Positions 45,524 to 63,795 of a stretch of 64,000 nucleotides of DNA are shown here, one piece after another; position 1 is the stretch's first letter; each line of letters starts with the position of its first letter. Position numbers and translations under genes: made by a program. The stretch is taken from the NCBI GenBank assembly GCA_017481725.1, contig JAFUOX010000055.1, positions 7,443 to 71,442 on the forward strand, in the 5' to 3' direction. Source of the stretch: Kiritimatiellia bacterium (lineage in GTDB: Bacteria > Verrucomicrobiota > Kiritimatiellia > RFP12 > UBA3636). The notes under the pieces were generated by a model that saw only the letters and a list, made by a program, of their open reading frames with translations, was not told the origin of the DNA and did no database searches.

Positions 45524-45557
45524 AATCAATTCAGCGGGTTTGTGATATTCATATTTG

Positions 45558-45581: not shown

Positions 45582-45618
45582 TAGTTGAATCTCATAAACT
45601 AGAACGCCATAGATGCTG

Positions 45619-45649
45619 CTAAATGCACCCAATGAGGTGCATTTATTTT
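45619..45649. repeat. Short-form palindromic repeat (11-6-11), copy B
   Basis: CTAAATGCACC-CAATGA-GGTGCATTTAT. Confidence 0.65.
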
Positions 45650-45691
45650 CGAAAACAGTTGTAAAATAAACAAGAATATCTGTCAATAGAC

Positions 45692-45774
45692 AAAGTAAAT
45701 GCAACTAGCCAGTTCGACAGACTAAATGCAACGCATAACTTCAGAGGTAGTTGCATTTAGTTTGTCTTTTCACC
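45692..45774 (-). repeat. Long-form palindromic repeat, copy 1 (with extra half-site)
   Basis: AAAGTAAATGCAAC..GACAGACTAAATGCAAC-17-GTTGCATTTAGTTTGTCTTTTCACC. 45751-45774 is the exact reverse complement of 62041-62064. Confidence 0.85.
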
Positions 45775-45778
45775 CACT

Positions 45779-45818
45779 AAATATGAGAACACACGAATAT
45801 TTGCGTGTTCTCATATTT
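45779..45818 (-). terminator. Hairpin downstream of DUF2971 gene
   Basis: 14-bp perfect stem AAATATGAGAACAC...GTGTTCTCATATTT. Confidence 0.7.
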
Positions 45819-45840
45819 ATATGCTATAATGTTGCAAAAG

Positions 45841-46704
45841 TTATTTGTGTTTTTTTAAAATGTTACAAATCTTTTTTTTACAACAATGTTTGCATTTTGT
45901 TCTTAATACAAGTTTATTTAAAAGGAATGAGTTATCTACGGTGTTGTGCTTTTCAAAATCTAACGTTATAGTATCAGGATGGTTTTTATAAAAAGAATTC
46001 ATCTTTTTTATAAAATCCTCTTTTGGGAGACACGGGCCACAAAGGATTTTAGCACTTTTCCAAAGTGGCATAACATCTATATCAATTTTTTGGGGTGGAT
46101 TTGTAGATGTTATATCTAATTCCACAAGAATGCGGACTTCTGTTTCGTATTCCCATGCAATATTTTTTATTGCCCCAGTGAAATCACCATCTTCACAAAT
46201 ATGTTTTAAATTAGAGCATTTGTTGGTAGTAAGAAGAGATCTATTCCATCTAATGGAATTAGTTTTGTCGTTAAAATAAGTAATGTCAACTAGTTTAATA
46301 TTTTTTATTTTATATTTTTCCCGAGTTTCTGGATCATGACAGCATACAGTGTTTTTAATGGTTTTTAAAATGGATGCTTTTGTAAATTTGATACGGATGG
46401 CCTTGTTAAGACTACTATTATATATACTCCAAAGTGCAACGCTTTCATGACTGCTAAATGAGAAGCTCCCTACATATAAATTCTTTAAATCATTATTATG
46501 ATTAAATCCTTCTGTAAGATCGTTCAATTTTGTTATATGTGATAAACGTAATGTTTTGCTTTGTAGCATACTTTTTAATGCGTCAATACTAGTGTAATGA
46601 TAGTAGTAACTATGCCTTTCTGCTCTATCAATTAAAAATTCTTTTATCTCTTTTAAAGTTGTTAAATTTTTAAATTCATTTCTAATGTTATCTATTGTTG
46701 CCAT
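45841..46704 (-). CDS. DUF2971-like protein (putative defence-associated)
   Basis: YYHYTS, LRLS....LND, SFS...ESVALWSIY, K..AWEYETEVRI. Strong GGGAGGAG RBS. Confidence 0.75.
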   Translation of the reverse strand: MATIDNIRNEFKNLTTLKEIKEFLIDRAERHSYYYHYTSIDALKSMLQSKTLRLSHITKLNDLTEGFNHNNDLKNLYVGSFSFSSHESVALWSIYNSSLNKAIRIKFTKASILKTIKNTVCCHDPETREKYKIKNIKLVDITYFNDKTNSIRWNRSLLTTNKCSNLKHICEDGDFTGAIKNIAWEYETEVRILVELDITSTNPPQKIDIDVMPLWKSAKILCGPCLPKEDFIKKMNSFYKNHPDTITLDFEKHNTVDNSFLLNKLVLRTKCKHCCKKKICNILKKHK

Positions 46705-46718
46705 TTTATCTCCTCCCT

Positions 46719-46742
46719 AAATGCTATATCGCTCATAATTTT
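46719..46742. repeat. 24-bp direct repeat, right of DUF2971 module
   Basis: AAATGCTATATCGCTCATAATTTT. Confidence 0.75.
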
Positions 46743-46854
46743 GAATATTTGTAAATTACTTAAATATTATATTGATATGTAGTTTGCAAAGGTAATAGCT
46801 GAAATTTTATATTCTAATGATACTATAATTAACAATACATTAATCTGTATTTTT

Positions 46855-48075
46855 TTATTTTAGATTGTTGAATTTATGAGAAATAATCTTGTCTGTCAGT
46901 TGTAAAACAATATTTTCCCAAAGAAGTTTTTTGTTGAATAATGGCTTAGGTGGAGGTGATTTTATAACCTCAATCATTTTTTCTGAGAAGGAAGAAATAG
47001 ATTCTTCTTCTGTGTCTTTCACAGGAACAGCAGTTCCGTTGTTTTCTGTAATAATACCAGGGCCACCCCAATCCCAACAAATAACTGGTGTACCAAGAGC
47101 TTGAGCTTCAACGCAAACTTGTCCAAATGCCTCATGTAAGGCCGGATGTAATAATGCCGTTGATTTTGCTATCTCTGTGTATACTTCTTCAAGAGTGTCT
47201 AATCTATTTATGAATGTTATATTATTAGATATTTGAAGCCTATTTGCTAAATCAATAAGATTCCTTTTCTCCGGACCATCACCAATTACTTCAAGTCTAG
47301 CATTGGGATAGTCTTGAAGTATGTTTTTAAACGCTTTTATGGCTAAATGTACTGCTTTCCAATGTTCTAATCTACATGCTGTAACAAAAAGGGGGTAGTT
47401 TTCTTTTTGTGTTGAATTTGATATGTTTTCTAATGCGATAAGTTGTTCTTGATTTAGCCCTGATTGGGGAATGATTTCAATAGTAGATATATCAACGAAT
47501 TTGGATAGTTTTGATGCTGTTTCTTTTGTTGCTGCAAATGATAGTGTGATATGGTTATATGCAGATTTGAATAATGGGAGTCTTGGAATTAAGTATGAAA
47601 ATAGATTTTTTATGTTCTCTTTTGTTTTACCGGATATAGAATAAGATTTTTTAAAACAAGGAGGAGTAGTGTCTCCACCACCAACAGGACCAAAAAATGT
47701 AGGGATACCAGTCTTGCCAAGAAAAGTTGGAACCCAATATTTACCGAATGTGATGTGGTGAATACAATCTGGTGATAGATTTTTAAGATTTTTCTTTATA
47801 TATTTAAGGGCAGAAATTTGCCATATTATGTAAAAAAGTTGTACACCAAATCCTTTTCTTTTCCAAAAAGTCAAATATTTTGGTGGATCAAAAAATAACC
47901 ATTGAACATTTGTAACCCAGATTTCGTTGCTGTTTAAAATATTATCCTTGTTGTTTTTTCATGTAAGAACTGTAACATTATGTTTTTTTGCAAGTTCATT
48001 GACAAAAGACCACCCAACACCAGGCTCTGAACCTTTCCCTGGTTCACATGCATAAGCTGATACTAAAATTTTCAT
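46855..48075 (-). pseudogene. GT4 glycosyltransferase interrupted by an in-frame TGA at codon 39
   Basis: ATG at 48075 reads MKILVSAYACEPGKGSEPGVGW...VTVLT*KNN, continuing in frame into the 46855-47874 ORF (HEAFGQVCVEA). Stop at 47959-47961. Confidence 0.85.
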
Positions 48076-48132
48076 ATAAAATGTAAAGAATGCGTTTTGT
48101 TTAATTATAATTTAATTTTCTATTATTAGTAA

Positions 48133-49074
48133 TTATTTAGTTATTTCGAATAATGTAGAATTCATTTTTTTTGTGAGAACATCATCGGGAAAATAAATTA
48201 TTAGAGGCTTGATAAAAAAACTTTTAATCCATAATTGTTTAGGTTGAACATGAATAATGGTTGCTCTTTGTCTTCCTTGCATTTGTCTACGCTTGATACA
48301 AGAAAATAACAAAGATAACTTTTTTTTCTTTCGGAAATCCATATAGGATAATTTTGTAAGAACACCCTTTTTAGACGAAATATTAGTAGTAAAATCTTTA
48401 TAGTTATAATCCCCCAAAGCTAATACTATTATTCCGCAAGGAGCAAAAAACATCCAAAAAAAAGTTTGCACTTTTCTAAAGAGATATCTTAAAAAAGAAA
48501 ATGGGTGTTTGTATGTGTTTTGTATGATTTTTTGCTTTAAAAAAATATGGGCATCTAGGATTTTATTATTTTTAATAAAATTTAAAAAAGTTTCAAACTC
48601 TATTTTGTTGAGTATTTTTCTTTCTGTATTTAGATGAATATATAAATTGTTTATGTCTTCGTTAGTTAAAGGATTAGTATTTAATTCCTCATAAATTTTT
48701 ACTATGTTTTTTGCTAATAATGGCATTGTAAATCTTTTATGAGTACTAAATGATGAACTAAGTTTCGGAGGGGGTAAATAAAACCAGTTGAGGTAACTTA
48801 CAATGTGTAACTCAAAAAAACCACATTGGGTATCGTTTTCTTTAAAAAAAAGGTATCGTAGGCCAAATGGAGAATTAACAATTGATAATAAGAAGTTGAG
48901 TTTTTCTGATATTAGTTTAATTGGTTTTTTTGTTTTTCCCCAGTCTGTTTTCTTTATCCAAACATCAACATCCCTACCGATGTTTCCATTATGGTTCCCA
49001 TGAAGAATTGTTACTTCTATATTGTTAATATGTAATATATTTATGATTTTGTTAAATAATTCTAATTTTTCCAT
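48133..49074 (-). CDS. Hypothetical protein with N-terminal nucleotidyltransferase-like motif
   Basis: ILHG....IGRDVDVWI (G-x-DxD) and ELH strand. Assignment is tentative. Confidence 0.5.
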   Translation of the reverse strand: MEKLELFNKIINILHINNIEVTILHGNHNGNIGRDVDVWIKKTDWGKTKKPIKLISEKLNFLLSIVNSPFGLRYLFFKENDTQCGFFELHIVSYLNWFYLPPPKLSSSFSTHKRFTMPLLAKNIVKIYEELNTNPLTNEDINNLYIHLNTERKILNKIEFETFLNFIKNNKILDAHIFLKQKIIQNTYKHPFSFLRYLFRKVQTFFWMFFAPCGIIVLALGDYNYKDFTTNISSKKGVLTKLSYMDFRKKKKLSLLFSCIKRRQMQGRQRATIIHVQPKQLWIKSFFIKPLIIYFPDDVLTKKMNSTLFEITK

Positions 49075-49078
49075 GTTT

Positions 49079-50014
49079 TTAAATTTTTGATTTTATTTTA
49101 TGAAGAAAGAATTTTGGTCGAATTACAAATGCAAAAAAAATAAAAATAATAGTTTGTATATATTTTTTTTCAGCAATTAAATAGCCTATATCATGAAATA
49201 ATTTTTTGCTTAAAACTTTTCTATAATCTTTTATTTTTATTAAAATTGGTCTGTTTTTTTCTAAAGTTTCAAATTCTTCTAAGGATAATTCTTTTTTGTT
49301 GTTCCTTCTACGCACTATGCAGTTTTTTATATATTTTAAATAAAATTGAGAACGGAAGAATTTAGTTGTAGTGACAGACCCAGAGTGAATTCTATATCTA
49401 GTTAAAAATTCGGGTTGTGCTATAACTACATATTTTTCGCTGATTCTATTCCACAAATCAATATCTTGAGCTTGTTTAAATTGTGGACGAAATCTTAAGT
49501 TACTTTCATTAAGCATTGACATTCTAACAATAGAGGCCGGAGAATATAATCCAATGATTTCGTTTGTTCTCATATATTCTGTATAGATTTCTCTTGTTAA
49601 TACATCTAGTTTCCCTTTCCCAAAAATATCTCCTTTTGAATTTATGTATTTAACAAACGAAGATGAGGCACAAACATCTTTGTTTTGATCCATAAATTGA
49701 ACTTGTTTTTCCAGTCTGTTTGGTTCTGCGATATCATCTGCATCTATCATTAAACAGTAATCTGTTTTTACAATATCTAGTGCAGAGTTGCAGGCCATAG
49801 ATCTACCTAAATTTTCTTTGTGTTTAATTATTGTTATTAATTTAGGATGTTGTTTCTTATATTCTTCTAGGATGAAAATTGTTCTATCTGTAGAACAGTC
49901 GTCAACAATGATAATTTGCTCAGGTAAAACAGTTTGGGATAGAATACTATCAATAGTTTTTGCAATTAATTTCTCACCATTATAAACTGGAATTATAAAA
50001 GTTGCTGTAGACAT
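49079..50014 (-). CDS. Glycosyltransferase family 2
   Basis: IPVYNGE, VDDCSTD, NLG, IDADD, RLEKQ, QDIDLW. Confidence 0.92.
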   Translation of the reverse strand: MSTATFIIPVYNGEKLIAKTIDSILSQTVLPEQIIIVDDCSTDRTIFILEEYKKQHPKLITIIKHKENLGRSMACNSALDIVKTDYCLMIDADDIAEPNRLEKQVQFMDQNKDVCASSSFVKYINSKGDIFGKGKLDVLTREIYTEYMRTNEIIGLYSPASIVRMSMLNESNLRFRPQFKQAQDIDLWNRISEKYVVIAQPEFLTRYRIHSGSVTTTKFFRSQFYLKYIKNCIVRRRNNKKELSLEEFETLEKNRPILIKIKDYRKVLSKKLFHDIGYLIAEKKYIQTIIFIFFAFVIRPKFFLHKIKSKI

Positions 50015-51108
50015 TATGATTTTCCTTTTCTATTGAATGGATTAATAGCTAACATTTTTTCTTGAAAAAATGCCGAAATATGTGTTTTATATAAATAACA
50101 AAACAATATTAGGAAAAAAAACAAAACAATTATTGCGATAATGTTGATTAGGCAATGTTCTTGTAGATTAAAAAAAAGAAGAACAAAACGTAGGGTTCTA
50201 AGAGAAATTTGATGTAAAAGGAAAAATGGCAAAGAAATAGAGCTTAAGAAAACAATAATTTTGTGTTGACTAAGGTTATAAAATAAACCTTTTCTAGTTA
50301 TTGCAAGGAGATAAACAACGAATGCCGTAAATGGTGTAAACATTGTTTTTGTTGCAACTATCATATATAAAAATGGAAATTGAGTTTTTAAAATAACAAT
50401 ACAAAAAATTAGTAAAAAAGAAGTGAAAATCAAAATATCAATATTGTGTGACTTCGTTTTTCCGTATGGTAATAAATAGATTGCTATATATATGCCTAAT
50501 AAAAATTCATAAACACGATAAAGAGGAAATGAATAGAAAAAAGTATAAAGGAAGTCGGAATAAAAAAATGGCGAAAAGAAAAATGGTATAAGATACATAA
50601 TAAAGATAAAAAGTAAAGAATATGTTTTCCCAAGAGTATTTATTAAATTTAATAATAAAGGGAAAAATAAATAGGCAAAACACAATGTAGAAAGGAACCA
50701 GCACACGCCTGAGAAATTTGATAAAGGGAAGTAGCTTTGAAGCAAAAGTAAATTTATAGGTACAGAAAACCAATTTACTCTGTCACTTAAAGATCCTAAC
50801 AAAGCAAACGGAATCCCAATAATTGTTATTAATAGTGCAAGAGGATAAAATTTAGCAAGTCTTATCCAAAAAGAATAAAGATGAAATAGTAACCCTCTCT
50901 TTGTAGCGTTTTTATGATTGTGAGCCATAACAAGGCCTGAAATAATAAAGAAAATACTTACAGGTATAGCACCAATATCAGTAAAAACACCACTTATTTT
51001 ATAGTAATCTCTGAAATTTTTTATACTAGGAACAATAGGGGTATGGCAAATAAAAACCATAATCATTGATATTGCTCTTAAAAGATTTAAGCCGTGTAAT
51101 TTATTCAT
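50014..51108 (-). CDS. Acyltransferase_3 (OafA-like O-acyltransferase)
   Basis: LNLLRAI, H, FFIISG, RLAKFYP, WFLS, FFLLHQ, multiple TM helices. Confidence 0.88.
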   Translation of the reverse strand: MNKLHGLNLLRAISMIMVFICHTPIVPSIKNFRDYYKISGVFTDIGAIPVSIFFIISGLVMAHNHKNATKRGLLFHLYSFWIRLAKFYPLALLITIIGIPFALLGSLSDRVNWFSVPINLLLLQSYFPLSNFSGVCWFLSTLCFAYLFFPLLLNLINTLGKTYSLLFIFIMYLIPFFFSPFFYSDFLYTFFYSFPLYRVYEFLLGIYIAIYLLPYGKTKSHNIDILIFTSFLLIFCIVILKTQFPFLYMIVATKTMFTPFTAFVVYLLAITRKGLFYNLSQHKIIVFLSSISLPFFLLHQISLRTLRFVLLFFNLQEHCLINIIAIIVLFFFLILFCYLYKTHISAFFQEKMLAINPFNRKGKS

Positions 51109-51115
51109 ATTTAAT

Positions 51116-51742
51116 TCATCTAGGTATATCGGTTGTTGAAATATTTATATTTTTTAAAAGCTGATTAATAATCTCATCTGGCGAGGCTTCTGCATTTTGA
51201 ATAATTAGCCTTTTAATGAGATTATGTTTGGTTAGTAAATCTTGGTATTGTTCAATTTCCGTTTTTGAAAGTTCTGGCTTTCGAGAAATAATTACCTCAG
51301 GTGCAGCAACTAACGCAATTGTTGTATGTGGCAGAGGAGTCATTCCAATAAAAAGTTTTAATATCCATTTAGGAAGTTTTAGTCGAAAGCGAGTAGGATC
51401 GAGAAAAATGTCATATGCATACCGATCTGCAATTACTAGACGATTTTTTCTTAAATTTGGCTTAATTATAAAGATGTAGCCGTATATGTAACATAAATAA
51501 TGATAAAAAAGAAATGCGAGGCTTGCAATAGGATTTCTTATTGATTTTCCTCTTGGATTTTGTGCAGCAGAAGAAGGGACACGATTAAAACAAATTTCTT
51601 TTTTTATTGGTTTCCAATGGAAATATAGATATTCATGGAAGTTATTTTCTTCCATAAGTTTAGGAATTGTTTTATTTATAATTGTACTTTTCCCAACGCC
51701 ATCAGCGCCTTCAAAACAAATAAATAGTCCTTTTTTATTCAT
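51116..51742 (-). CDS. Thymidylate kinase-like P-loop kinase (polysaccharide-locus type)
   Basis: EGADGVGKST, HWKP, IADRYAYD, DPTR.R, RKPEL. Confidence 0.8.
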   Translation of the reverse strand: MNKKGLFICFEGADGVGKSTIINKTIPKLMEENNFHEYLYFHWKPIKKEICFNRVPSSAAQNPRGKSIRNPIASLAFLFYHYLCYIYGYIFIIKPNLRKNRLVIADRYAYDIFLDPTRFRLKLPKWILKLFIGMTPLPHTTIALVAAPEVIISRKPELSKTEIEQYQDLLTKHNLIKRLIIQNAEASPDEIINQLLKNINISTTDIPR

Positions 51743-51748
51743 GTCGTA

Positions 51749-51778
51749 ATTGTAATAAAATGATTCGTATTATGTCAA
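51749..51778 (-). promoter_or_regulatory. Internal sigma70 promoter, probably producing a leaderless mRNA
   Basis: TTGACA-18-TACAAT, with the -10 element 6 nt before the ATG at 51742. Confidence 0.55.
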
Positions 51779-51808
51779 TTTAAATGGTCTAGATGTAGAA
51801 GAATAAGT

Positions 51809-52579
51809 TTATTCATTGGAAACAAAATCTTGCATCCATTTACATTTTGATATGGTTGTTTTTACAAATTCATCAATCCTGTCCTCAGGAATTTTGTTAA
51901 CCAATGTTCCAATGCGTTTAATTGCATATATTAAATCGTATGAAGAATCGTCTTTTTCTTCTGCCCATTCCCAGTCGATGGCAACTAATTCTCCAAAATC
52001 GGTTTCTCTAAGATTCCACGGAGCAAAATCGCCATGAATAATCTTATGTTTTCGCCATTCAAGAAGTAATTCGTGAATTCGCTTGTCTTCGATAGATATG
52101 TTTTTTGCTTTTTTGTAATAAGGCATTTCAAAATAAAAAACTTTATCTATTTCTGCAGAAGATATAACTTTAGGGATACCTAGAATCCCATTAAATTTGG
52201 AAATATTATCAAATTCTTTCTGAATAGATGTTTTCTTATCAATAGTTGTGGCTTTAATTATTGAGAACTTTGAGCCATCTCGTTTTACTGCAATAACTCT
52301 ATCTCCATGATCTGGATTACATACTAAAAATCCTAAACAGCCTTTCTGAAAATCTTTATTAAATATTTTGCAAAGCTCTGCAGCAACACCACTTAGAGTG
52401 TGTTGCTTTAATAGTGGTTTAACAAAATTTAATCGAATGGCTATGCTTAAAATGTGGTATACAAGCTTAGCCTTAGTTGTTTGAGGGAGATATGTTTGTA
52501 GTGTTTTTAATGCTACTTTTTTGTCTGTTGGCAAAAGAAGTAGTGGAACCCCATGTCTTTTAAATACGTACAGATTCAT
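51809..52579 (-). CDS. APH/choline-kinase-like phosphotransferase
   Basis: IIK, E helix, HGDFAPWN, IDWE. Confidence 0.8.
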   Translation of the reverse strand: MNLYVFKRHGVPLLLLPTDKKVALKTLQTYLPQTTKAKLVYHILSIAIRLNFVKPLLKQHTLSGVAAELCKIFNKDFQKGCLGFLVCNPDHGDRVIAVKRDGSKFSIIKATTIDKKTSIQKEFDNISKFNGILGIPKVISSAEIDKVFYFEMPYYKKAKNISIEDKRIHELLLEWRKHKIIHGDFAPWNLRETDFGELVAIDWEWAEEKDDSSYDLIYAIKRIGTLVNKIPEDRIDEFVKTTISKCKWMQDFVSNE

Positions 52580-52586
52580 ACTCTTC

Positions 52587-53423
52587 CTATTTGTAGAATA
52601 TTCTGCGTATGATTTTAAAAAATTGTCTCAAAAAGTACCTGGCAAAGTTTTTATGTATATTTACATACAATAGCCAAAATTTTTCTCCAAATGGAATTTT
52701 GGGAGCATATAGGTGCTGAACGCGTAGGCGTTCTTGATAGCGTCGTTCTGCAAATACTTCTGATACATTGTTTTCGTGCCATGCAAAACAAGCTAGCGTT
52801 TTTGGTATAAAGCCAAATTTGCAACCAAGCTTATAAAATCTACACCAATATTCAAAGTCCATTGTTACCTTGTAATGGATATCAAGTGGACCGACTTTTT
52901 CAAAGGCATTTCTTGCCCAAAATGTGCCAGCTGATGGAATATAGCATCCATGATATAGTAAAATATATCCGCAAAATATGTGATTATATTTCTTTTTTAT
53001 GAATTTACCATCTTTATCAACAAATTCAATCTCTCCATATACGATATCTTTTTTAGGATGAGACGTGAAATAATCAGATATGGTTTTCAATGTGCCTTCT
53101 TTATATATTTCATCTGCATTGAGCCAACACATAATTTCACCAGTGGAGCGTAATAGTCCTTTATTGATAGCATCAGTTTGTCCGCGATCCTTTTCGGATA
53201 CCCAAGAAAAAGAGTAGCGAGCTTTTCTTTCTTCTGGAATTGTGGCAATAAAGTTATCCCACTCCTGCATGTATTTGACGCTATTGTCTGTTGAACCACC
53301 ATCAATTACAATGTGTTCTACAATAGGAGAGTCCTCTGCCTCTGTTTGGGCAAAAACATTCTTTATGGCTTTGATTAAAAAATCGCCGTAGTTATAGTTA
53401 GGAGTTACAATTGAAATTTTCAT
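52587..53423 (-). CDS. Glycosyltransferase family 2 (WcaE-like)
   Basis: IVTPNYN, DGGSTD, EKDRGQTDAINKG, WLNADE. Confidence 0.92.
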   Translation of the reverse strand: MKISIVTPNYNYGDFLIKAIKNVFAQTEAEDSPIVEHIVIDGGSTDNSVKYMQEWDNFIATIPEERKARYSFSWVSEKDRGQTDAINKGLLRSTGEIMCWLNADEIYKEGTLKTISDYFTSHPKKDIVYGEIEFVDKDGKFIKKKYNHIFCGYILLYHGCYIPSAGTFWARNAFEKVGPLDIHYKVTMDFEYWCRFYKLGCKFGFIPKTLACFAWHENNVSEVFAERRYQERLRVQHLYAPKIPFGEKFWLLYVNIHKNFARYFLRQFFKIIRRIFYK

Positions 53424-53474
53424 AAAATGGATTAAAAGATAATATGTGTTTTTAGAAATTTTATTTTTAACATC

Positions 53475-53546
53475 ATTATATTAAAAAATTGGTCTTTGGT
53501 CAAACGATAATTGCTTGTTGAAAAAAAAATACAGATTTGGTAATAT
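53475..53546. promoter_or_regulatory. Divergent sigma70 promoters of the glycan locus
   Basis: Minus: TTGACC-17-TATAAT (53503-53475). Plus: TTGAAA-17-TAATAT (53518-53546). Confidence 0.55.
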
Positions 53547-53592
53547 TTTGCTAAAAATCATTAGTTAACTCTTATTTCGGTTGCAAACTACA

Positions 53593-54990
53593 ATGAAAGC
53601 AAATTTATCCTCCATTCAGACAAAAATAATGCCAATTATTTTTGGATTGGCATTATTTGCCATCGCTTTTTTAGCTGTCAAGGGAATGGTATATGGCAAT
53701 GTTACAAATGTTAAATTGCTAGTAGCAATGGTTGTTGCTATAGGTGTGGTATTACTGCTTGATAAAAATTATTGGATGCTATGTCCGATATTGGTGGTTG
53801 TTTCACTTAGAATACCTGGATTGCCTTTTTCTTCTGCGGAATTAGGGTGTCTTGCTCTAATAGGAATGTTTCTTTTACGTTCCTCAATGCATATGGATCG
53901 AGTGACTCCACTAAAAAAAGAAGTTATTTTTGCTGCCCCGTATTTTTTTTGGGTGTGTGTAGTTTGGTGCTTGAACCCTACGGGAATGCATATCTTTGGC
54001 TCAAATACAATTGGAGGTAGGTTCTATTTTAAAATAGTATTAGCATTTGCTACTCTTTGTGTTTTATCTCGAATTATAACATCAGAACGACAATGTAAAG
54101 TTATATTTTGGTCAATAATAATTGGAAATTTTATTAGTATTTTGTTTAGTTTGAGTTCTTTCGGTGTAGATGCACTTCAAGAGTCAATTGAAACGGATGC
54201 AAATACAAAGTATTATTTGGAAACTTTTGGGAATATTTTGTTGCTTTTACTTTGTCATTACAGAATAGGCGAATTTATAAAATTAAGTTGGAAATTTTTT
54301 GTTGCAGTAATTTTATTTCTCACTGTCGCATATGCTGGACGTAGAACAATGATGGGGCGTGTCCTTATAACGCCATTTATTCTAATGTTTTTCAAGGGTA
54401 AGGATAAAATTAAAACAATCGTAATTGCACTATTTGCATGTTTTATTCTTGGTTTTGTACTAGTTGGACAGGGTAGAGTATATGAGTTGCCATATTCTAT
54501 GCAACGTGCGATGAGTTTTTTGCCTGCGAAATGGGATTCTAGATTTGATAACTACGGAACAAAAGATTTGTTTAGAGAGGAGTTGCATAAACGAGCAAAA
54601 GAAAGAATTAAAGAAAGTCCGTTGTTCGGCAGGAAAGGTTTTTCGATGGATTTAAGGGATACGCTATGGATTAATTCACGAGATGTAGCAGTAAACTATG
54701 AGGGACATGAATATGCAGGCAATTGGCACAATAAATTTTGGGGGATGGGTGCAGATTTTGGACTTCCAGCGTCTTTTGCTTGGTACTTTTTCTCTATTTC
54801 CACTGTTTTAATTTGTTGGAAACGACGCTATTGGACAAAATTTGGAACATTTCGAAATACGTTGTTTTTGTATTATTCTTTATTTATGGTTTATGATTTA
54901 ATTTTTGCCTATGGTCATAGTGCAGTAACACCTTTTGGTCAATGGATTAATTTTGCAATGTTGTTAGCATTATTTAATAAGAATGATTAA
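53593..54990 (+). CDS. Wzy/O-antigen ligase-like membrane protein
   Basis: About 11 TM helices, AGRR, large periplasmic loop, GNWHN...FGLP. Confidence 0.7.
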   Translation: MKANLSSIQTKIMPIIFGLALFAIAFLAVKGMVYGNVTNVKLLVAMVVAIGVVLLLDKNYWMLCPILVVVSLRIPGLPFSSAELGCLALIGMFLLRSSMHMDRVTPLKKEVIFAAPYFFWVCVVWCLNPTGMHIFGSNTIGGRFYFKIVLAFATLCVLSRIITSERQCKVIFWSIIIGNFISILFSLSSFGVDALQESIETDANTKYYLETFGNILLLLLCHYRIGEFIKLSWKFFVAVILFLTVAYAGRRTMMGRVLITPFILMFFKGKDKIKTIVIALFACFILGFVLVGQGRVYELPYSMQRAMSFLPAKWDSRFDNYGTKDLFREELHKRAKERIKESPLFGRKGFSMDLRDTLWINSRDVAVNYEGHEYAGNWHNKFWGMGADFGLPASFAWYFFSISTVLICWKRRYWTKFGTFRNTLFLYYSLFMVYDLIFAYGHSAVTPFGQWINFAMLLALFNKND

Positions 54991-55014
54991 TTTTAAAAAG
55001 AGGATTTGTAATTC

Positions 55015-56217: not shown

Positions 56218-56229
56218 TAAGGAAAGTTT

Positions 56230-57315
56230 ATGTCTCAAAATAAAAAAGTACCACGAAAAATGTTTCTTTATCTCAATGTTTTATTCAAAATATTTTTCCG
56301 AATAAAACCTTGTGCATATTTCATCGCAGCAACTTCAAATAATAATTTAGGGGATAATGCTCAATTAATGTGCATAGAAAAATGGATTAAAGAAAACTAT
56401 CCACCATTAAAAATTATACGCATACCAATATCTGTAATGGGATGTGACGTTGCCCTTGTTAGGGGATGGTTGAGAAACGCTTTAATATCGTGGATTTTGA
56501 TTAATTGTATTAGAATTACACAAAGAAAAGGTGATGTTTTCTTTGGTAATAGTGGGTATCACTTTGTTGACCATAGTTCTTGTTGGTTAGCATTTTGTAG
56601 GATAGCAACATCATGTAGAAAAACACCTTTAGTAATATTTCCTGTTACTATTAACTTTTTTAATAAATGGGTAGGTATGAGAGCTTCAAAGGAGCTTAAC
56701 TCTTGTGATAACGTTACAATTTTGTGCCGAGATAAAGTGTCGTACACTAACGCTAAAGAATTGTTTAATAGATGTCGTATTTTGTTGTTTCCCGATATTG
56801 TTACATCTATGATTGGTACATGTCAATTACCAAAGGTTCAAGAAAAGAAAGGCTTCTTTTTTTGTTTACGAAATGATGGAGAAGAGTTTTATTCTCAAAG
56901 CGATTTATTTTCTCTTTCTGAGCGTCTTAAATCCATCGATGAGGTGACTTTCGGTGATACACAACCATTGTATAATCAGGTATGCTCTGATGAAAATCGT
57001 GAAAAACTTATTGGTGAATTCATTGAATTTTTATCAAAATTTAAGGTGATAGTTACAGATAGATACCATGGTACAATTTTTTCTGTAATTTCGTCGACTC
57101 CTGTTGTTGTTGTATCTTCAATAGACCACAAATTAAGTAGTGGAGTTAAATGGTATCCAGAAACTTTTTCCAAAAGAGTTGTTTTTGCTGAAAATCTTTC
57201 AGATGCATATGAATTAGCCTTAACATTTTATAATCAAGGGATTTTAACTTCACCAGAATCGTATTTTAAGAATAATTATTATGATAAATTAAAGAATTTA
57301 ATTGAAGAGAATTAA
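56230..57315 (+). CDS. Polysaccharide pyruvyltransferase family protein
   Basis: NLGD, CRDKVS, PDIV, LRND.E, VTDRYHG, HK. Confidence 0.85.
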   Translation: MSQNKKVPRKMFLYLNVLFKIFFRIKPCAYFIAATSNNNLGDNAQLMCIEKWIKENYPPLKIIRIPISVMGCDVALVRGWLRNALISWILINCIRITQRKGDVFFGNSGYHFVDHSSCWLAFCRIATSCRKTPLVIFPVTINFFNKWVGMRASKELNSCDNVTILCRDKVSYTNAKELFNRCRILLFPDIVTSMIGTCQLPKVQEKKGFFFCLRNDGEEFYSQSDLFSLSERLKSIDEVTFGDTQPLYNQVCSDENREKLIGEFIEFLSKFKVIVTDRYHGTIFSVISSTPVVVVSSIDHKLSSGVKWYPETFSKRVVFAENLSDAYELALTFYNQGILTSPESYFKNNYYDKLKNLIEEN

Positions 57316-57340
57316 AATTAAGTATTTTTGGAGATTTTGT

Positions 57341-58225
57341 ATGTCTTTATGTAGAACACTTAAAAATATAGTGAAAAGAATTTGTGATAGACGTCCTAAA
57401 ATTGAAGCAAAAATTGTATCTTTAGCTAAAAATGAATTGCTAAAGGATAGGGTTATTCTTATTACAGGAGGTTCTTCTGGTATAGGATATAGTATAGCAA
57501 AAGCTTTTCTAAATTCAGGTTCTTTTGTTATAATTACAGGACGGAATCAACAAAAATTGCAACTTGCGTTAGAACAATTAGCTCGTGAAACAAATTCAAA
57601 TAGAATTATTTGTCAAGTGTTTGATAATATTGATTATCCTAAATTTCAATCGGTCGTAGATCAAATAAATTCAGAGTTAGAAAAAAAAGGTGAAAAAAAA
57701 ATTGATGGGTTTGTAAATAATGCCGGTATTAATTCTACAGAAGTATTCCCCAATTTTACATCGGAAAAATATGATGAGATAATGACTGTTGACTTAAAAA
57801 GTGTCATTTTTATGACACAAGCATTTGGTAAATATATGGTTGCAAATAAAATTAAAGGAAATATTTTAAATATCAATTCAGTGTCTTGTATCCGACCTAA
57901 TAACACAATATATGGAATTGCAAAAAGAGGTGTATTAGGAATAACGTTAGGTGCAGCAAAATCACTTGCTCCTTTCGGAATTGTAGTAAACGGGATTGCT
58001 CCTGGTCCAGTTGCGACTGGTATGATGAATAAAAATATAAATGACGAGATAACATTGAATAGAGTTTTACTTGGTAGATATATTTTACCAGAAGAAATAG
58101 CAAATATGGCTGTCTTTTTAGTTTCAGAAATGGGTAACTCAATGATAGGAGAAACAATTTTTATGACGGCTGGAGCGGGTCGCTTGACATTAGACGATGT
58201 TTCATATGATTATAATTTAAATTAA
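57341..58225 (+). CDS. SDR family oxidoreductase
   Basis: TGGSSGIG, NNAG, YGIAK, NGIAPG. Track start 57302 TTG. Confidence 0.9.
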   Translation: MSLCRTLKNIVKRICDRRPKIEAKIVSLAKNELLKDRVILITGGSSGIGYSIAKAFLNSGSFVIITGRNQQKLQLALEQLARETNSNRIICQVFDNIDYPKFQSVVDQINSELEKKGEKKIDGFVNNAGINSTEVFPNFTSEKYDEIMTVDLKSVIFMTQAFGKYMVANKIKGNILNINSVSCIRPNNTIYGIAKRGVLGITLGAAKSLAPFGIVVNGIAPGPVATGMMNKNINDEITLNRVLLGRYILPEEIANMAVFLVSEMGNSMIGETIFMTAGAGRLTLDDVSYDYNLN

Positions 58226-58259
58226 TTATTTTAGTGTTTGTTTTTTTAAGGAATATGTT

Positions 58260-59987
58260 ATGAAGTATACAATACAGGAAAATGTTCAAATAGTTGTTGC
58301 TCTTTTAAAAAAATATTTTATACGGCATATTGTTATTAGTCCAGGAGGAACTAATATCCCTTTTGTTCAAGCTGTTCAAGATGATTCCTTTTTTAAATGT
58401 TATTCCGTTGTTGATGAAAGAAGTGCAATGTATTTTGCAATCGGTTTATATTTAGAAACTGGTGAAGTTGTTGCAACATCTTGCACAAGTGCACAAGCTA
58501 CTAGAAATTATATACCAGGTTTAACAGAAGCTTTTTATAAACATGTGCCGATAGTTGCAATTACTACATCAAAACTAGAATGTTTTCTATATCAAGAATA
58601 TATGCAAGCTCCAGAACAATGTTCTCTGCCTTGCGATTGTGTGAAAAAATCTTTTGATTTACCACCTGTAGTAGATGATAATACTCGTATGCTTTGCATT
58701 TCTAGAACACGAAATGCTTTACTTGAGCTTAATCATAATGTTCCTGGTCCAATACAGTTAAATCTTAGAATCGCAGATAACCAACAAGGAAAATATTTAG
58801 AAATTGATTTGCCTGAAATAGAAAAAGTAAATCGCTATATGTGTTGGGATAAATGGGATACAGAAAATCTTGATAAAGCAAAAATCCTTATAGTAATAGG
58901 AGAGCATAGGGTGTTTTCTCAGAAAGAGCAGGAATCACTAGAGGCTTTTTGTGAATGTTATAATGCTGTAGTTTATTCAAATCATTTATCAAATTTTTCA
59001 GGAAAGTATTCTATAAAAGGTAATTTATTGTTAGAATGTGGGTATATCTCTATTCTTGATCCTGATATAGTAATAACGATTGGTGGTCAAACAGGAGATT
59101 ATCCTTTGTTTTTTGCTCTTAATTCTAGGAAGAATTTTAAACATTGGCGGGTTTCTGAAGGTGGAGAATACGTTGATACATATGGAAAGTTAAATAAAAT
59201 TTTTGAATGTCCTACTGAATTTTTCTTTAATCGTTTAAAACAAAGTAAATCAATATGTAATCATACATATTATCAAGAATGGATTCATGCACAAAATAGA
59301 CTAGATAAAACTATAGAATTACCATTTTCTAATTTATGGGTTGCACAAAATCTTAGTAAAAGAATACCCAAGAATAGTATTATGAATTTTGCAATTTTAA
59401 ATAGTTTACGATGTTGGAATTATTTTGATTTACCTTCTAATGTTAAATGTTTTTCAAATGTTGCAGCATTTGGTATTGATGGTTGTAATTCAATGCTGTT
59501 TGGAGAAAGTGTTTTAACTAAAGAGTTGTGTTTTATAGTTACTGGTGATTTAGCATTTTTTTATGATATGAATGTATTAGGAATCCGTAATATAAATAAC
59601 AATATTCGAATTTTGTTGATAAATAATAATGGTGGTGCAGAATTTAGGTATATGACACGGAATTGGATTGATAAGTTTGATGTAGATAATTTTGTTGCCG
59701 CTATGGGGCATAATGGAATCGCAAAGGGGTGGTCACAAGATTGTAATTTTGAATATTTGACAGCGAAAACAAAAGAGGAATTTATTGAAAATTCAAAAAA
59801 ATTTGTTGGATATAATCCAAAACCTATTATATTTGAGGTGTTTACAGATTCAAATATTGAAGTTGAGGCTTTAAATCTTTTTTTGTCACATAATTCTTTG
59901 CATAAAAATACAGCGCATATAAAAAAAATAATAAAAAAAGTTATTGGTCAAAAAAAAATTGAATTAGTTAAAAAAATCATTAGATAG
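58260..59987 (+). CDS. menD: MenD-like ThDP-dependent enzyme in polysaccharide locus
   Basis: ISPG, VDERSA.YFA.G, CTSA.A..NY.P...EA, GPIQLN, FGIDG, GDLAFFYD...NNNGG. Family clear, role probably not menaquinone synthesis. Confidence 0.8.
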   Translation: MKYTIQENVQIVVALLKKYFIRHIVISPGGTNIPFVQAVQDDSFFKCYSVVDERSAMYFAIGLYLETGEVVATSCTSAQATRNYIPGLTEAFYKHVPIVAITTSKLECFLYQEYMQAPEQCSLPCDCVKKSFDLPPVVDDNTRMLCISRTRNALLELNHNVPGPIQLNLRIADNQQGKYLEIDLPEIEKVNRYMCWDKWDTENLDKAKILIVIGEHRVFSQKEQESLEAFCECYNAVVYSNHLSNFSGKYSIKGNLLLECGYISILDPDIVITIGGQTGDYPLFFALNSRKNFKHWRVSEGGEYVDTYGKLNKIFECPTEFFFNRLKQSKSICNHTYYQEWIHAQNRLDKTIELPFSNLWVAQNLSKRIPKNSIMNFAILNSLRCWNYFDLPSNVKCFSNVAAFGIDGCNSMLFGESVLTKELCFIVTGDLAFFYDMNVLGIRNINNNIRILLINNNGGAEFRYMTRNWIDKFDVDNFVAAMGHNGIAKGWSQDCNFEYLTAKTKEEFIENSKKFVGYNPKPIIFEVFTDSNIEVEALNLFLSHNSLHKNTAHIKKIIKKVIGQKKIELVKKIIR

Positions 59988-60350
59988 TTTTATCATTTTT
60001 TAGATTGTTTTTTGTAAATCTTAAGCTCTGCAGTTTGTTTCGTAATTTTAAATACGCAATTCAAGAGTTATGAATCACTTTGTATTAAGTGCACTGATTG
60101 TATTATATATATGCAAATGAGAGTACATTGTCTCAATAATTTGATATAATAAAATATTACTAAAATCACATAAAATAAGTTTTTTATTATTGGAAAAATA
60201 TATCATTTTTATTCCAGTAATGATTTATAAATAAACTGTATTTTTAAATTATATTGGTTTCCTTTTTTAACTTATAAAATTCGTTTAAAATTTTATTTGT
60301 TATTATAAAGGCTTCTTTTATTTATTAGAATTAATGAGTAATCTATTTTG

Positions 60351-61892
60351 CTATTTTTTTAATATACATTTTAATTTGTATATAATATTTTCAGATCTAA
60401 ATTTTTTGTACCATAATATGATAGAAACTATTACTATTGAGAAATTTGTAATTAAAGAAATTAAGAATCCGGTAATTGACTTAAATATATCTATAGAATT
60501 TAATAATGCACAAATAGATAGTAATAAAAGGATTAGCGATGTAATAGGAATTAATAACTGATATAAAAATATTGATAATTTTATTTTGAACATTTTTTTA
60601 ACTATAATTATTCTTAAAGCGGAGGTTAGAACGTGAGAAAAAATCAAAATTATTCCTAAAGAAAGAAAATGGTTTATTTCTAGTTTTAATAATACAATTA
60701 ATAAAATTAGTGAAAATAATATTATTAGGCATAATATTTTTTGGTATTTTTTTATTTTACCAGAAGCATGTATCAATATCATATATCCGTTTGTGGAGTA
60801 TAGTATCAAGGATTTAAGTGTAAATATGAAAATAATTAGAGGTAGACCTTGAGGAGGCTTGTCTAACCATAAATCTATTACATCGGTACACCATATCCAT
60901 AATGATGTTAGTACACCTCCGAGAACAGCAGAAGAAATAAAACATGATGAAATAGCTAAGGACTTAGAATGTTCAACGTTGTTAGAACCTAATCTAGTTG
61001 TTATTTCAGGAGAAATAGCTGAAGAAAATGCTTCTGCTATTGTGTTGATTTTAGTTGATAAATGGATACTAAGATTTAAGAGTGCATTGATTGATATTCC
61101 AACAAATGAGTTCATTATTATATTTATTAACGGATTGAACAATGTAGCTGCAACAATGCCAAACATGGAATAAAGTGTGTATGAGAACATTTCTTTAATT
61201 TTTTTTGTATTTACTAATTCTTTCAGAACTATTCGGCAATCTGTAAAAGAATAGATAGCAAGTAGCGACATTGTTATAGAAATTATGGACATTATACTTG
61301 CAGTTAGAATTGAGTGCATAATAAGTTTGTCGCCGGAGTATTTTAAAATAAACCAGGCTGCTAGTCCTAGAAGCAAAGATTGTATTACATATGAAATGTT
61401 TCTTACAAAAATTAGTTGTTTTGCTGTGTAAATGGCATGAAAAGGTATATTGAGAATAGAAAAAAACATTGCAATAATTGAAATCCTAAAAATAATTATT
61501 GAAGAAGATAAAAAATTATTAGGTATGTTTAGAGTGTTGTTGATTATGTATATGCCTATTGGATATAAAGTTAAGCATAAAATAAATGCCATAATTAAAT
61601 GAATAAAAAAAGCACAATTAAACCATTCTCGTAATTCGTTTTTTTCGTTTGTATATGAATTCGTTTTTGCCTTTCCAATTGCATATGCAAAAAAACGAGT
61701 ACAACTTGTAGTCATTAGACCATTAAAAATTCCAACAAAAGAAATTACTGAACCAACAACACAAAAAACACCATATTGTGTTTCTCCAAGAGCAGAAAGC
61801 ACCCACCGTATTGTAAAAAAACCAATAATTATTGAAAGAAAATTTTGCACCCAAGTAGCAAATACATTTCCAGCTATACGTTTTGTAGACAT
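60351..61892 (-). CDS. wzx: Wzx-type polysaccharide flippase (MOP superfamily)
   Basis: KRIAGN, LGETQYG..CVVGS, RFFAYAIG, about 12-14 TM helices. Confidence 0.82.
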   Translation of the reverse strand: MSTKRIAGNVFATWVQNFLSIIIGFFTIRWVLSALGETQYGVFCVVGSVISFVGIFNGLMTTSCTRFFAYAIGKAKTNSYTNEKNELREWFNCAFFIHLIMAFILCLTLYPIGIYIINNTLNIPNNFLSSSIIIFRISIIAMFFSILNIPFHAIYTAKQLIFVRNISYVIQSLLLGLAAWFILKYSGDKLIMHSILTASIMSIISITMSLLAIYSFTDCRIVLKELVNTKKIKEMFSYTLYSMFGIVAATLFNPLINIIMNSFVGISINALLNLSIHLSTKINTIAEAFSSAISPEITTRLGSNNVEHSKSLAISSCFISSAVLGGVLTSLWIWCTDVIDLWLDKPPQGLPLIIFIFTLKSLILYSTNGYMILIHASGKIKKYQKILCLIILFSLILLIVLLKLEINHFLSLGIILIFSHVLTSALRIIIVKKMFKIKLSIFLYQLLIPITSLILLLLSICALLNSIDIFKSITGFLISLITNFSIVIVSIILWYKKFRSENIIYKLKCILKK

Positions 61893-61921
61893 TGTTTAAA
61901 AAGAAAATTAGCCTATTGGTT

Positions 61922-61955
61922 CGCGTGACTTAAAAAAATACGCGTGACTTAAAAA
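61922..61955. repeat. 15-bp tandem direct repeat upstream of wzx
   Basis: CGCGTGACTTAAAAA at 61922 and 61941. Confidence 0.7.
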
Positions 61956-62040
61956 TTTAATTTATTTTACTTTTTATCTCAGACATTAAAACATTTTATT
62001 TGTTCAATTGTCAAGGTTAAATTAATCATGAAATTTGCGA

Positions 62041-62097
62041 GGTGAAAAGACAAACTAAATGCAATGACTTATAAAACTGGGTGTTGAATTTGCTTTG
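62041..62097 (+). repeat. Long-form palindromic repeat, copy 2
   Basis: GGTGAAAAGACAAACTAAATGCAAT-17-GTTGAATTTGCTTTG. Confidence 0.85.
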
Positions 62098-62322
62098 GCC
62101 AGTAATCATAATAAATTAAAGCACAAAGGCTCACAAAATCACGAAAAGGAATTGAAGAAAGTGTCGAGTATCTAATAAACCAATTCGACCAACCTAACAC
62201 TATTGTTTCTCTTTTCTGCGTTGCTCTTAGTTTGCCAACTAGGGCAAAGACACAGTATTAAATACAATATCTCAATTTTCTAATTCGAAGTAAAATTATA
62301 TTAGTGAAAATGGTATAACAAA

Positions 62323-63222
62323 CTAATTTCCACTAATAAAGGTGCCTACACCCATTTGGTTTTCAACTATTTTGTGAAGATTAGGGGATTGGCTAAATGT
62401 ATGCATACATGCATGGTGAACTGTTAGCACTAAATCTTGCAATTTTTGGTCTTTTTCAAGCATATTTATTTTTAAACCCATTTCTATTGCTTGAACACTA
62501 TCTATATGACGATCGTGAGCTTTTGTGTCTCGATGATTGTTTAATGCATTTACAATTTTTCTTGCTTCGGCTTCAGCGTTTTTGCTTTGGTAGAACATTC
62601 CTGAAATTAACCATTCTTTGACCAATGTTTGAGACAAATCTACTGCCTGTTGACAATTTACTAAAAAACCAGGGGGAATTTTTGCAAATATTGATTGCCA
62701 AAGCGGAGTTGATGCAGGGTTTTTAGCAATTTCCGAAGTAGCTTTTTTAAATTCATCGATAACTGCAAGCGCAGCCATTGACCCAAACTGGGGATCAATT
62801 GGACCAATACTAGATTGTTTACCCATAAAAATTTCTTTACTTGCACAAGCAATCATTGTTCCTCCAGACATAGCCAATTGCGGGATAAAACATCGTATGT
62901 CTCGATCAAATTTTTTACGTAAATAAGAAACAATAGCCTCGGTTGCCGATGTAACACCCCCAGGTGTATGCAAAATCAAATCAAGTCCTAGAGAGGTGTC
63001 CATGTTATTGACGGCTGCCATAAAACAATTTATATCACCATCATAAATCATTGACTGTATTGGAGAGTCTCCACGCTGTAACCATCCAGAATAGTATAAA
63101 ATTATATTTCGTTTGGTGTATTTATGTAACTCTTTTGTATATTTACGGCGAACTAAATCAACAGGACCAGGTTGTTGCCCCACAATTTGTATCTCGTTTA
63201 AAACATCACCCCAATTAGGCAT
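62323..63222 (-). CDS. SDH_sah family ClpP/S49-class serine protease
   Basis: RNIILYYSGWL, LDLILHTPGG, AMSGGT, GPIDPQ, H in AHDRHI. Confidence 0.88.
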   Translation of the reverse strand: MPNWGDVLNEIQIVGQQPGPVDLVRRKYTKELHKYTKRNIILYYSGWLQRGDSPIQSMIYDGDINCFMAAVNNMDTSLGLDLILHTPGGVTSATEAIVSYLRKKFDRDIRCFIPQLAMSGGTMIACASKEIFMGKQSSIGPIDPQFGSMAALAVIDEFKKATSEIAKNPASTPLWQSIFAKIPPGFLVNCQQAVDLSQTLVKEWLISGMFYQSKNAEAEARKIVNALNNHRDTKAHDRHIDSVQAIEMGLKINMLEKDQKLQDLVLTVHHACMHTFSQSPNLHKIVENQMGVGTFISGN

Positions 63223-63225
63223 AAT

Positions 63226-63414
63226 TCATACTCCTGAATTTGTGCTTTCTGATATTTCTATTTTATTAATAAATTTGAATTCACAAGGGAATGGACATAT
63301 TTGAGTATTAGAATATGGTTGAAGTTTTTTATAGAACTCCAAAACTCTATCTTTTGTTATCCGTTTCGACTGTGAGGATTTTTTTTGTTGTTGAGATGTT
63401 TTTTTAGCACCCAT
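63226..63414 (-). CDS. Small basic hypothetical protein cotranscribed with the protease
   Basis: GGAGAG RBS, upstream TTGACA promoter, stop 3 nt before the protease ATG. Confidence 0.55.
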   Translation of the reverse strand: MGAKKTSQQQKKSSQSKRITKDRVLEFYKKLQPYSNTQICPFPCEFKFINKIEISESTNSGV

Positions 63415-63488
63415 GATAAACTCTCCATATGTTTATTAAGATAATATATCATAAATGCTCCAATTGTCAACACGGAAAAATTATAGTA

Positions 63489-63543
63489 TGAAAAGGCAAA
63501 CTAAACGCAACTTTCTTTTTAAGCTAGGTGTTGCATTTACTTT
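63489..63543 (+). repeat. Long-form palindromic repeat, copy 3
   Basis: TGAAAAGGCAAACTAAACGCAAC-18-GTTGCATTTACTTT. Confidence 0.85.
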
Positions 63544-63795
63544 ATCTAGTAACAGTGTAAAAAACACAGATGTTTTCCATAAAAAGGAAATGTCCAACAA
63601 ATGACCAAAAATAATGAGAAAAGCAATGGAAACAATGTCTTATTATGATATAAATGAATGAAAATTGTATGTTTATTTATTAAAAATGCAGTTTGAAATG
63701 TCCAATTTATGTTCAATAATAAGGGGTTGTTAAGGTAATAATGAGATGTTATAGGGGGCAACCCATGGGCTTGTGTGATGGCTAGAAGTGCGAGG

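Follow-up and report, generated by a model that had tools for sequence, protein, structure and literature searches.

What are the palindromic repeats that lie between the genes of this stretch of Kiritimatiellia DNA, and with which kind of genetic system do they belong? The window, that is, the whole stretch of 64,000 nucleotides analysed here (contig JAFUOX010000055.1, positions 7,443 to 71,442), is part of a 2.59-Mb metagenome-assembled genome (MAG) with 104 contigs, a G+C content of 39% and a completeness of 88%, referred to below as G000. The initial annotation had listed five intergenic copies, three of them with an asymmetric consensus, and presented them as an unrecognised family at the junctions of accessory modules. 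Three explanations had been offered, namely recombination sites of a cassette-like system, a family resembling MITEs (miniature inverted-repeat transposable elements), and binding sites for one dimeric protein. All five copies are present at their listed places, the asymmetric consensus is correct, and every copy in the window is intergenic. The family is not an unrecognised one, however, because its ends match those of insertion sequences (ISs) of the IS30 family. Judging from sequence comparison, the repeats are very probably non-autonomous derivatives of a divergent IS30 subgroup, comprising MITEs of 56-96 bp and single-end stumps. The observed part of this reading consists of the identity in sequence and layout with complete ISs, the copy number, the distribution and the intergenic position.

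The repeats carry one of two terminal inverted repeats (TIRs), both of which were used as 25-mers in scans that allowed up to five mismatches: the type A TIR, GGTSAAWAGACAAASTAAATGCAAC, and the type B TIR, TGTAATTTGCAAAAGTAAATGCACC. On this basis the window copies are interpreted as follows, fold z scores being relative to shuffled sequences.

45681-45774, minus strand: complete long-form type A MITE of 94 bp, its TIRs with 0 and 1 mismatches.
62041-62105, plus strand: decayed short-form type A MITE consisting of TIR, 17-nt spacer and TIR; 1 mismatch in the left TIR and more than 5 in the right TIR.
63487-63554, plus strand: decayed short-form type A MITE of 68 bp; the spacer measures 18 nt, and both TIRs have 4 mismatches.
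3009-3049, no strand assigned: type B end stump, a hairpin with a 6-nt loop; its terminal inverted repeat at 3025-3049 (minus strand) is a mismatch-free copy of TGTAATTTGCAAAAGTAAATGCACC.
45620-45645, no strand assigned: two inverted TAAATGCACC core sites that form a hairpin around a 6-nt loop; fold z -2.7.

The unit at 45681-45774 is bounded by 25-bp inverted repeats and is composed of GGTGAAAAGACAAACTAAATGCAAC, a 17-nt spacer, GTTGCATTTAGTCTGTCGAACTGGCTA and then GTTGCATTTACTTTGTCTATTGAC. The 17-mer GACARASTAAATGCAAC is found three times in it, in the left TIR, in an inverted inner site and in the right TIR, the two right-hand copies being inverted. The inner site is absent from the units at 62041-62105 and 63487-63554, which measure about 65-68 bp. 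In the type B stump, the terminal inverted repeat pairs across the 6-nt loop with the inverted inner site TTGCACGACTAAATCCACC. Both 6-nt-loop copies of the window are built on the core TAAATSCACC / GGTGCATTTA. Each is located 3' of a gene on the plus strand, with a T-rich tract behind it.

Complete elements with these ends were found in other genomes. An Acetivibrionales MAG (G041) has five inverted TIR pairs that are 1,765-1,784 bp apart, which corresponds to ISs of about 1.8 kb. The G041 element encodes an open reading frame (ORF) of 433 aa. This ORF has an HTH_38 domain (E 2.5e-13), and its score against NF033563, IS30 family transposase, is 98.1 bits at a cut-off of 80. The ends of the element, GGTGAATAGACAAAGTAAATGCAAC and AGTTAATTGACAAAGTAAATGCAAC, agree with the type A TIR at 24/25 and 22/25 bases, respectively, and additional TAAATGCRAC sites are located just inside both of them. 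Direct repeats of 12-14 bp flank all three of the G041 copies examined, the third imperfectly. Long target duplications have a precedent in the IS30-family element IS1630 of Mycoplasma fermentans, for which the relevant passages of two papers give lengths of 19-26 bp (PMC2853133) and 16-26 bp (PMC3317919).

Relatives of the G041 transposase (E <= 1e-15) occur in 21 of 121 genomes of the window's order, with identities of up to 57% over the full length; relatives in the order score 75-93 bits against NF033563. One of these genomes, G100, harbours an IS that terminates in GGTCACTGGACAAAGTAAATGCAAC and GGTCACAAGACAAAGTAAATGCAAC, each of which agrees with the type A TIR at 23/25 bases. Its left end consists of the TIR, a direct inner site, a short loop and an inverted inner site, which is the site order of the long MITE, and its right end consists of an inner site, an 18-nt loop and the TIR, which is the layout of the short units. 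The long MITE at 45681-45774 is collinear, site by site, with the left ends of two IS30-family ISs, and its alignment with the G100 left end (A1) has a mean column identity of 73%. The 6-nt-loop form is likewise found at an IS end, in a genome of the same family (G015; ...GCGAAAGTAAACGCACC-AAATCA-GGTGCGTTTACTTTTGCAAACTACA), with 23/25 matches to the type B TIR.

Remains of such elements are also present within the genus. Genome G004 contains a C-terminal transposase piece, cut by a contig end (G004:C2), that is 52% identical to the G041 protein over residues 349-432; about 340 bp from it lies TGTAGTATGCAAAAGTAAATGCAAC, which matches the type B TIR at 22/25 bases. The 19-mer TTGCACGACTAAACGCACC beside this IS end recurs as the inner site of the window copy at 3009-3049. 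IS30-like gene fragments, followed by the related end CGTGCATTTARTCTTGCAAT, were found in G004:C46, at the very start of the contig, and in G000:C102. Homologues on plasmids of Clostridium beijerinckii and Butyrivibrio fibrisolvens bear the RefSeq label IS30 family transposase. Six 1-mismatch matches to the motif accompany the B. fibrisolvens homologue, and the C. beijerinckii homologue has no clear motif at its ends, with two 1-mismatch matches only. A match to the end of a known IS, which the initial annotation had named as an outcome that would speak against a new family, is thus present at the level of the IS30 family.

The ends described here share with the IS30 family a TIR length of 25-26 bp. 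By contrast with the typical family member, the subgroup transposase is longer (430-500 aa) and has a Cys-rich insert, as read from the translation; unlike the ends of the prototype IS30, those of the subgroup each carry several extra direct and inverted core sites; and, unlike the ISs of the family, the window elements have no transposase gene. The inverted repeats of the prototype, Escherichia coli IS30A, give 14-16 gapless matches out of 25 to the TIRs described here, as a raw count with no shuffle baseline. These matches include the inner GTNAAYGCAAC, and the terminal TGTA is common to IS30A and type B only.

A route from such ISs to the repeats can be proposed. Each end of a subgroup IS comprises a 25-bp TIR and, next to it, more copies of the core TAAAYGCAMC in direct and inverted orientation, so that a single IS end contains a hairpin by itself. 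Deletion of the transposase gene would then leave the two ends back to back. The expected products would be a short type A unit (TIR, 17-18-nt spacer, TIR), a long type A unit with one inner site in addition, and a type B unit (TIR, 6-nt loop, TIR). The arm ...AAAGTAAATGCAAC would correspond to the terminal repeat of the IS, and the arm ...AAACTAAATGCAAC probably to a subterminal inverted site that has been extended to a full terminus. This dual origin, terminal on one side and subterminal on the other, would explain the asymmetric consensus. MITEs keep ends that are recognised by a transposase, so that a full-length copy can move them in trans; by analogy with this general behaviour, the DDE transposase of a full-length element may bind the retained ends and spread the miniature copies. 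The proposal of a MITE-like family is therefore supported by the TIRs and by the subterminal site layout of IS30-family ISs, and that of binding sites for one dimeric protein would hold only in the trivial sense that IS ends are presumably the binding sites of their transposase.

The initial annotation had called for a scan of the genome and of related MAGs, which yielded 45 loci in G000 and further copies in all four congeners. In G000 the 25-mers gave 36 type A and 25 type B matches, with 0 and 0 for the reversed-pattern controls, and these 61 matches group into the 45 loci. The 20-mer at no more than one mismatch has 19 matches in the genome (reversed control 0), nhmmer with one copy as query reports 13 loci at E < 0.05, and the palindrome pattern has 2 matches in the window against 0.00 in 100 shuffles. 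The loci are intergenic in 42 of 45 cases, although ORFs of at least 120 aa cover 87% of the genome; the remaining three are single 5-mismatch matches that are probably due to chance. Two inverted TIRs within 140 bp were found at 15 of the 45 loci, forming units of 56, 67-70, 83 and 94-96 bp and one 42-bp remnant. None of the MITE-like units (56-96 bp) contains an ORF. Full type B examples, such as TGTAATTTGCAAAAGTAAATGCACC-TCTTTT-GGTGCATTTACTTTTGCAAATTACA, and a hybrid copy on contig C99 with one type A end and one type B end place the 6-nt-loop forms in the same family. The copies occur singly and on many contigs, many of them within a few hundred bases of a contig end, and by our own reading of the ORF table they are found between convergent, tandem and divergent genes alike. 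Short, non-coding, bounded by 25-bp TIRs, dispersed, and provided with ends common to transposase-encoding elements, the units have these properties in common with MITEs.

Outside G000, the 20-mer (up to one mismatch) is present in each of the four other genomes of the genus and in one further genome of the order, with controls of 0, and it was not found in the 20 searched genomes of other genera of the same family. When 185,579 species genomes were scanned for exact matches, 54 stretches were obtained. By title, 20 of these belong to Kiritimatiellia/Verrucomicrobia gut MAGs, 9 to Syntrophomonas and relatives, 4 to one Acetivibrionales MAG and 4 to one other bacterium; the other 17 are single matches, several of which lie in coding-looking sequence and look like chance. 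Units of 67-96 bp recur in the four congeners and in Syntrophomonadaceae.

These counts bear on the question of whether the copies ever moved as miniature units. They could instead be debris only, left by single-end deletions of full-length IS30-type elements. Just one recognisable TIR is seen at 30 of the 45 loci, an IS end already holds a hairpin of TIR, loop and inner site, no target duplications were found, and truncated transposase fragments with related ends are present in G000:C102 and G004:C46. The paired copies, however, have sharp and identical boundaries (GGTGA..., ...TTGACC) at no fewer than nine loci whose flanks are unrelated, an outcome that independent deletions would not produce. 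Moreover, the inner-derived arm has gained the outer GGTSAAWAG of a true terminus, and the recurrence of the 67-96-bp units in the congeners and in Syntrophomonadaceae is at odds with debris. We regard this explanation as quite unlikely, and favour MITEs that are accompanied by single-end stumps.

Folding of the copies was also considered, since the repeats might be RNA or DNA hairpins under selection, for example intrinsic terminators that work in both directions, elements that stabilise mRNA or operators to which a dimeric regulator binds, with the likeness to IS ends being secondary. The intact copies do fold well: the unit at 45681-45774 folds better than shuffles (z -3.8 and -4.3), as do the hairpins at 3009-3049 (z -3.9) and 45620-45645. 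The position of both 6-nt-loop copies 3' of plus-strand genes and ahead of T-rich tracts, as well as the conserved place of some copies in sister species, would suit such a function. By contrast, two of the three long-form copies of the window, 62041-62105 (z +0.49) and 63487-63554 (z +0.34), fold no better than shuffles, which argues for decay rather than maintenance. There are no Rfam matches at the gathering score in the whole window, the terminator scan of 45400-45900 called only an unrelated hairpin at 45791-45808 and not the one at 45620, and the family is indifferent to whether the adjoining genes are convergent, tandem or divergent. A selected function as the origin of the family is therefore very improbable, and derivation from IS30-type ends is preferred.

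The copy at 45620-45645 represents either a type B relative that has degenerated or a hairpin that resembles a terminator and contains the same core. Its outer flank agrees with the type B TIR at only 17/25 bases by hand count, and matches of 86% to the surrounding 37 nt occur at many sites in each of the four congeners.

Several results weigh against the derivation from a mobile IS30 subgroup. An IS30-family transposase above the cut-off was found in none of the five genus genomes, fragments only being present in three of them, and a tblastn search of G000 with the G041 transposase gave a best E value of 0.023. These negative results are limited by the completeness of the genus MAGs (78-94%) and by the frequent failure of multi-copy ISs to assemble. 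The search for a co-occurring recombinase or transposase, which the initial annotation had recommended, thus succeeded in related genomes, where an IS30-type transposase is present, and not within the genus, where no intact one was found. The nine complete type A copies have no detectable target duplications, since the mean best match of their flanks, 5.78 of 13, was reached by 1,084 of 2,000 flank permutations, and no duplication of 2-3 bp is visible in them by our own reading. Erosion in old copies is a possible cause. No base-precise pair of filled and empty sites was obtained from five loci compared with the congeners, nor from 33 loci of G001 and G004 compared with G000, and the contigs of four metagenome runs include no form that lacks the copy at 45681-45774. 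Finally, none of the 12 highest-scoring classical IS30 loci in the order carries the TAAATGCAMC motif, and the subgroup transposases score close to the family cut-off (75-98 bits). The motif was seen only at relatives of the divergent G041 transposase, and the link is therefore to one divergent subgroup only.

Species differ at one orthologous intergenic region, which measures 207 bp in G001, where it contains a copy, and 99 bp in G000, where it does not. Its spacer is too diverged for a base-precise comparison; the difference suggests gain or loss within the genus. The family looks old, given the lack of an intact transposase in the genus, the lack of detectable target duplications and the copies that occupy the same place in G000 and G004 (C102/C52 and C71/C60). 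The two window copies that fold no better than shuffles, while the intact copy does, point the same way. The 45681-45774 copy is kept on a contig of a strain of about 96.5% identity (metagenome run X6). Most copies in the genome are presumably old and immobile by now.

Two further observations concern the comparison of strains and congeners. A junction of position 62064 with position 63517 in metagenome runs X2 and X5 was considered as a deletion and rejected; its shorter side is only 25 letters long, five foreign letters lie in between, and it was read as other copies of the family. Separately, a 2-kb segment is 99% identical between G000 (C50:29284-31284) and G001 (C16:94700-96700), genomes that are otherwise about 70-90% identical, and an adjoining stretch of 628 bp is 99.7% identical. 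The segment includes a partial type A unit, and its near-identity suggests recent transfer or cross-binning.

The association of the repeats with accessory-module junctions was examined by synteny. At the six G000 loci that were compared, DNA-level synteny with the congeners is lost no more than a few hundred bases away from the repeat. Such breaks are, however, a general property of this genome, and the proposed link is weak, as nearly every operon boundary is a synteny breakpoint. By our own reading, the first 45.6 kb of the window correspond in the closest congener to at least 11 blocks on eight contigs, at 71-96% identity, and repeats lie at only 2 of these 11 or more breakpoints. Of the G001 repeat loci, 23 of 25 are not collinear with G000, compared with 9 of 13 control intergenic sites located 6-8 kb away (Fisher p = 0.15); this control is small, with 13 of 20 windows usable and one repeat locus unscored, and some of the cases scored as a different contig lie near contig ends. 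The shuffled gene order within the genus could reflect real rearrangement or mis-assembly and mis-binning of the MAGs.

The variable surroundings of the repeats are nonetheless evident. The copy at 3009-3049 is part of a segment of 143 bp that lacks an orthologue; argS lies on one side of it and, on the other, a block that is placed elsewhere in all four congeners. This block, which includes the CoA-transferase gene, had been regarded as acquired. It is conserved in the four congeners at 80-83% identity, elsewhere in the genome, and was therefore relocated rather than acquired. The glycan locus downstream of 45.6 kb differs between genomes, and within 58200-63750 only the repeats match the congeners at the DNA level. 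The repeats are thus located in variable DNA, which is a frequent setting for the debris of mobile elements.

The same data address the suggestion that the repeats are cassette-like recombination sites, similar to attC, at which a distant recombinase would exchange accessory genes. The loss of synteny near all six of the tested loci is in line with it, as is the position of the SDH-type protease gene (62323-63222) between two direct copies. Yet synteny breaks are nearly as common at the control sites, hardly any operon boundary of the window is free of them, the genus has kept the CoA-transferase block, and the ends are those of IS30-family elements. One-per-gene arrays are lacking; rather than forming an attC-style array of uniform orientation, the copies are single and scattered over many contigs, although no search aimed at an integron integrase was made. 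With the IS-end match found, a cassette-like system is unsupported and, in our view, extremely improbable, and the IS30-derived MITEs provide the better account of the repeats.

IS30-family elements and MITEs derived from them have already been described, and the repeats of the window belong with such elements. In Spiroplasma of Morpho butterflies, one preprint reports MITEs that arose from IS30 elements by internal deletion (10.1101/2024.02.22.581604). Those MITEs are likewise non-autonomous and keep the ends of their IS30-family parent, but they have 25% of the parental length and coexist with many intact parents (10.1101/2024.02.22.581604). The units described here measure 56-96 bp, about 3-5% of a 1.8-kb parent, and are old and decayed, with the nearest complete parent in another genome of the order. 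The Correia elements of Neisseria, according to the passages that describe them, are gene-less units of 100-155 bp with 26-bp inverted repeats that are scattered between genes, duplicate a TA target and have been linked to an IS5-family transposase (PMC3898611). They have no sequence relation to the ends found here. The literature search, which lay outside ISfinder, where the IS may be named, found no paper on this repeat, this IS subgroup or Kiritimatiellia repeats.

Repetitive extragenic palindromic (REP) sequences and bacterial interspersed mosaic elements (BIMEs), which occur with REP-associated tyrosine transposases (RAYTs), are short intergenic palindromes, as are the repeats described here. 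The two differ in that REP/RAYT systems rely on a Y1 enzyme, whereas the present repeats have 25-bp TIRs that match the ends of DDE-type ISs. The window itself includes a RAYT-like gene at 43027-43767 (Y1_Tnp, E 1.7e-8) with hairpins of the AGTATGGAGAAGCGACTT... type on both flanks (42890-42990 and 43740-43830). Membership in this system was considered and rejected, as these hairpins are unrelated in sequence to the family; the comparison of the flanks bears out the earlier distinction between the repeats and RAYT-associated REPs.

A second and much more abundant repeat family was noticed alongside. Its units of about 150-200 bp are often tandem, form a long hairpin (CACTAGCGGAATGAGCTTTGCC...) and lie beside GC-rich short repeats of the GAGAC type. 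It occupies 63754-64000 of the window and the sequence beyond, as well as C71:6044-6250, C67:3009-3233, C98:28507-28717, C73:129567-129795 and C102:15399-15597 of G000. Dozens of places in G000 and the congeners carry it, often at contig ends and often adjoining IS30-type units. At two G000 sites (C67:3600-3640 and C98:16780-16823) a type A left TIR is followed directly by GC-rich short repeats and the long-hairpin repeat instead of the spacer and right TIR, as though the remainder of the unit had been interrupted or displaced by another array of repeats.

Other features were recorded in the course of the analysis. A separate perfect hairpin (ATATGAGAACAC...GTGTTCTCATAT) at 45784-45819 comes directly after the unit at 45681-45774, where the DUF2971 gene of the minus strand has its 3' end; no other terminator-like site was called by the scan in this region. 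One of the three single 5-mismatch matches outside intergenic DNA, at 54240-54264, falls inside a Wzy-like ORF. In G000 a gene that resembles a tRNA by eye (C87:3010-3100, minus strand) adjoins a complete type A unit at 3188-3281; a piece of about 200 bp with this gene is 90-92% conserved in all four congeners, on other contigs. Two short contigs from the scan of species genomes, titled Gastranaerophilaceae (L029) and Kiritimatiellae (L061), have a unit in common with nearly identical flanks, and one of them was probably binned into the wrong MAG. The ORF at 37329-39017 of the window (562 aa) combines LacAB_rpiB (residues 9-141) with a complete serine hydroxymethyltransferase domain (156-530), and represents a gene fusion or, alternatively, an ORF that was called too long from a TTG start.

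The identification provides an annotation for a repeat family that breaks the assemblies of these gut Kiritimatiellia MAGs, and removes a false lead, in that there is no hidden cassette-exchange system at these repeats. It also documents a poorly described IS30 subgroup, the ends of which carry several direct and inverted core sites. Owing to these multi-site ends, the remnants take on the appearance of an asymmetric palindromic repeat with two spacer classes, and the family illustrates how palindromic repeats result from the decay of such IS ends. That the ends are nearly identical in different phyla hints, modestly, at the exchange of mobile DNA among gut anaerobes. A broader reading, which we consider rather unlikely, is that the subgroup, with its hairpin-containing ends and its target duplications of 12-14 bp, an unusual length, moved recently between distant phyla of gut and digester anaerobes and that its miniature copies still matter to the host. 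The first part is based on the agreement of Clostridia and Kiritimatiellia ends at 22-24 of the 25 TIR bases. If this reading were true, the direct copies around the SDH-type protease gene could form a mobilisable composite, and the intact hairpins at gene ends could serve as bidirectional terminators that border the variable glycan locus.

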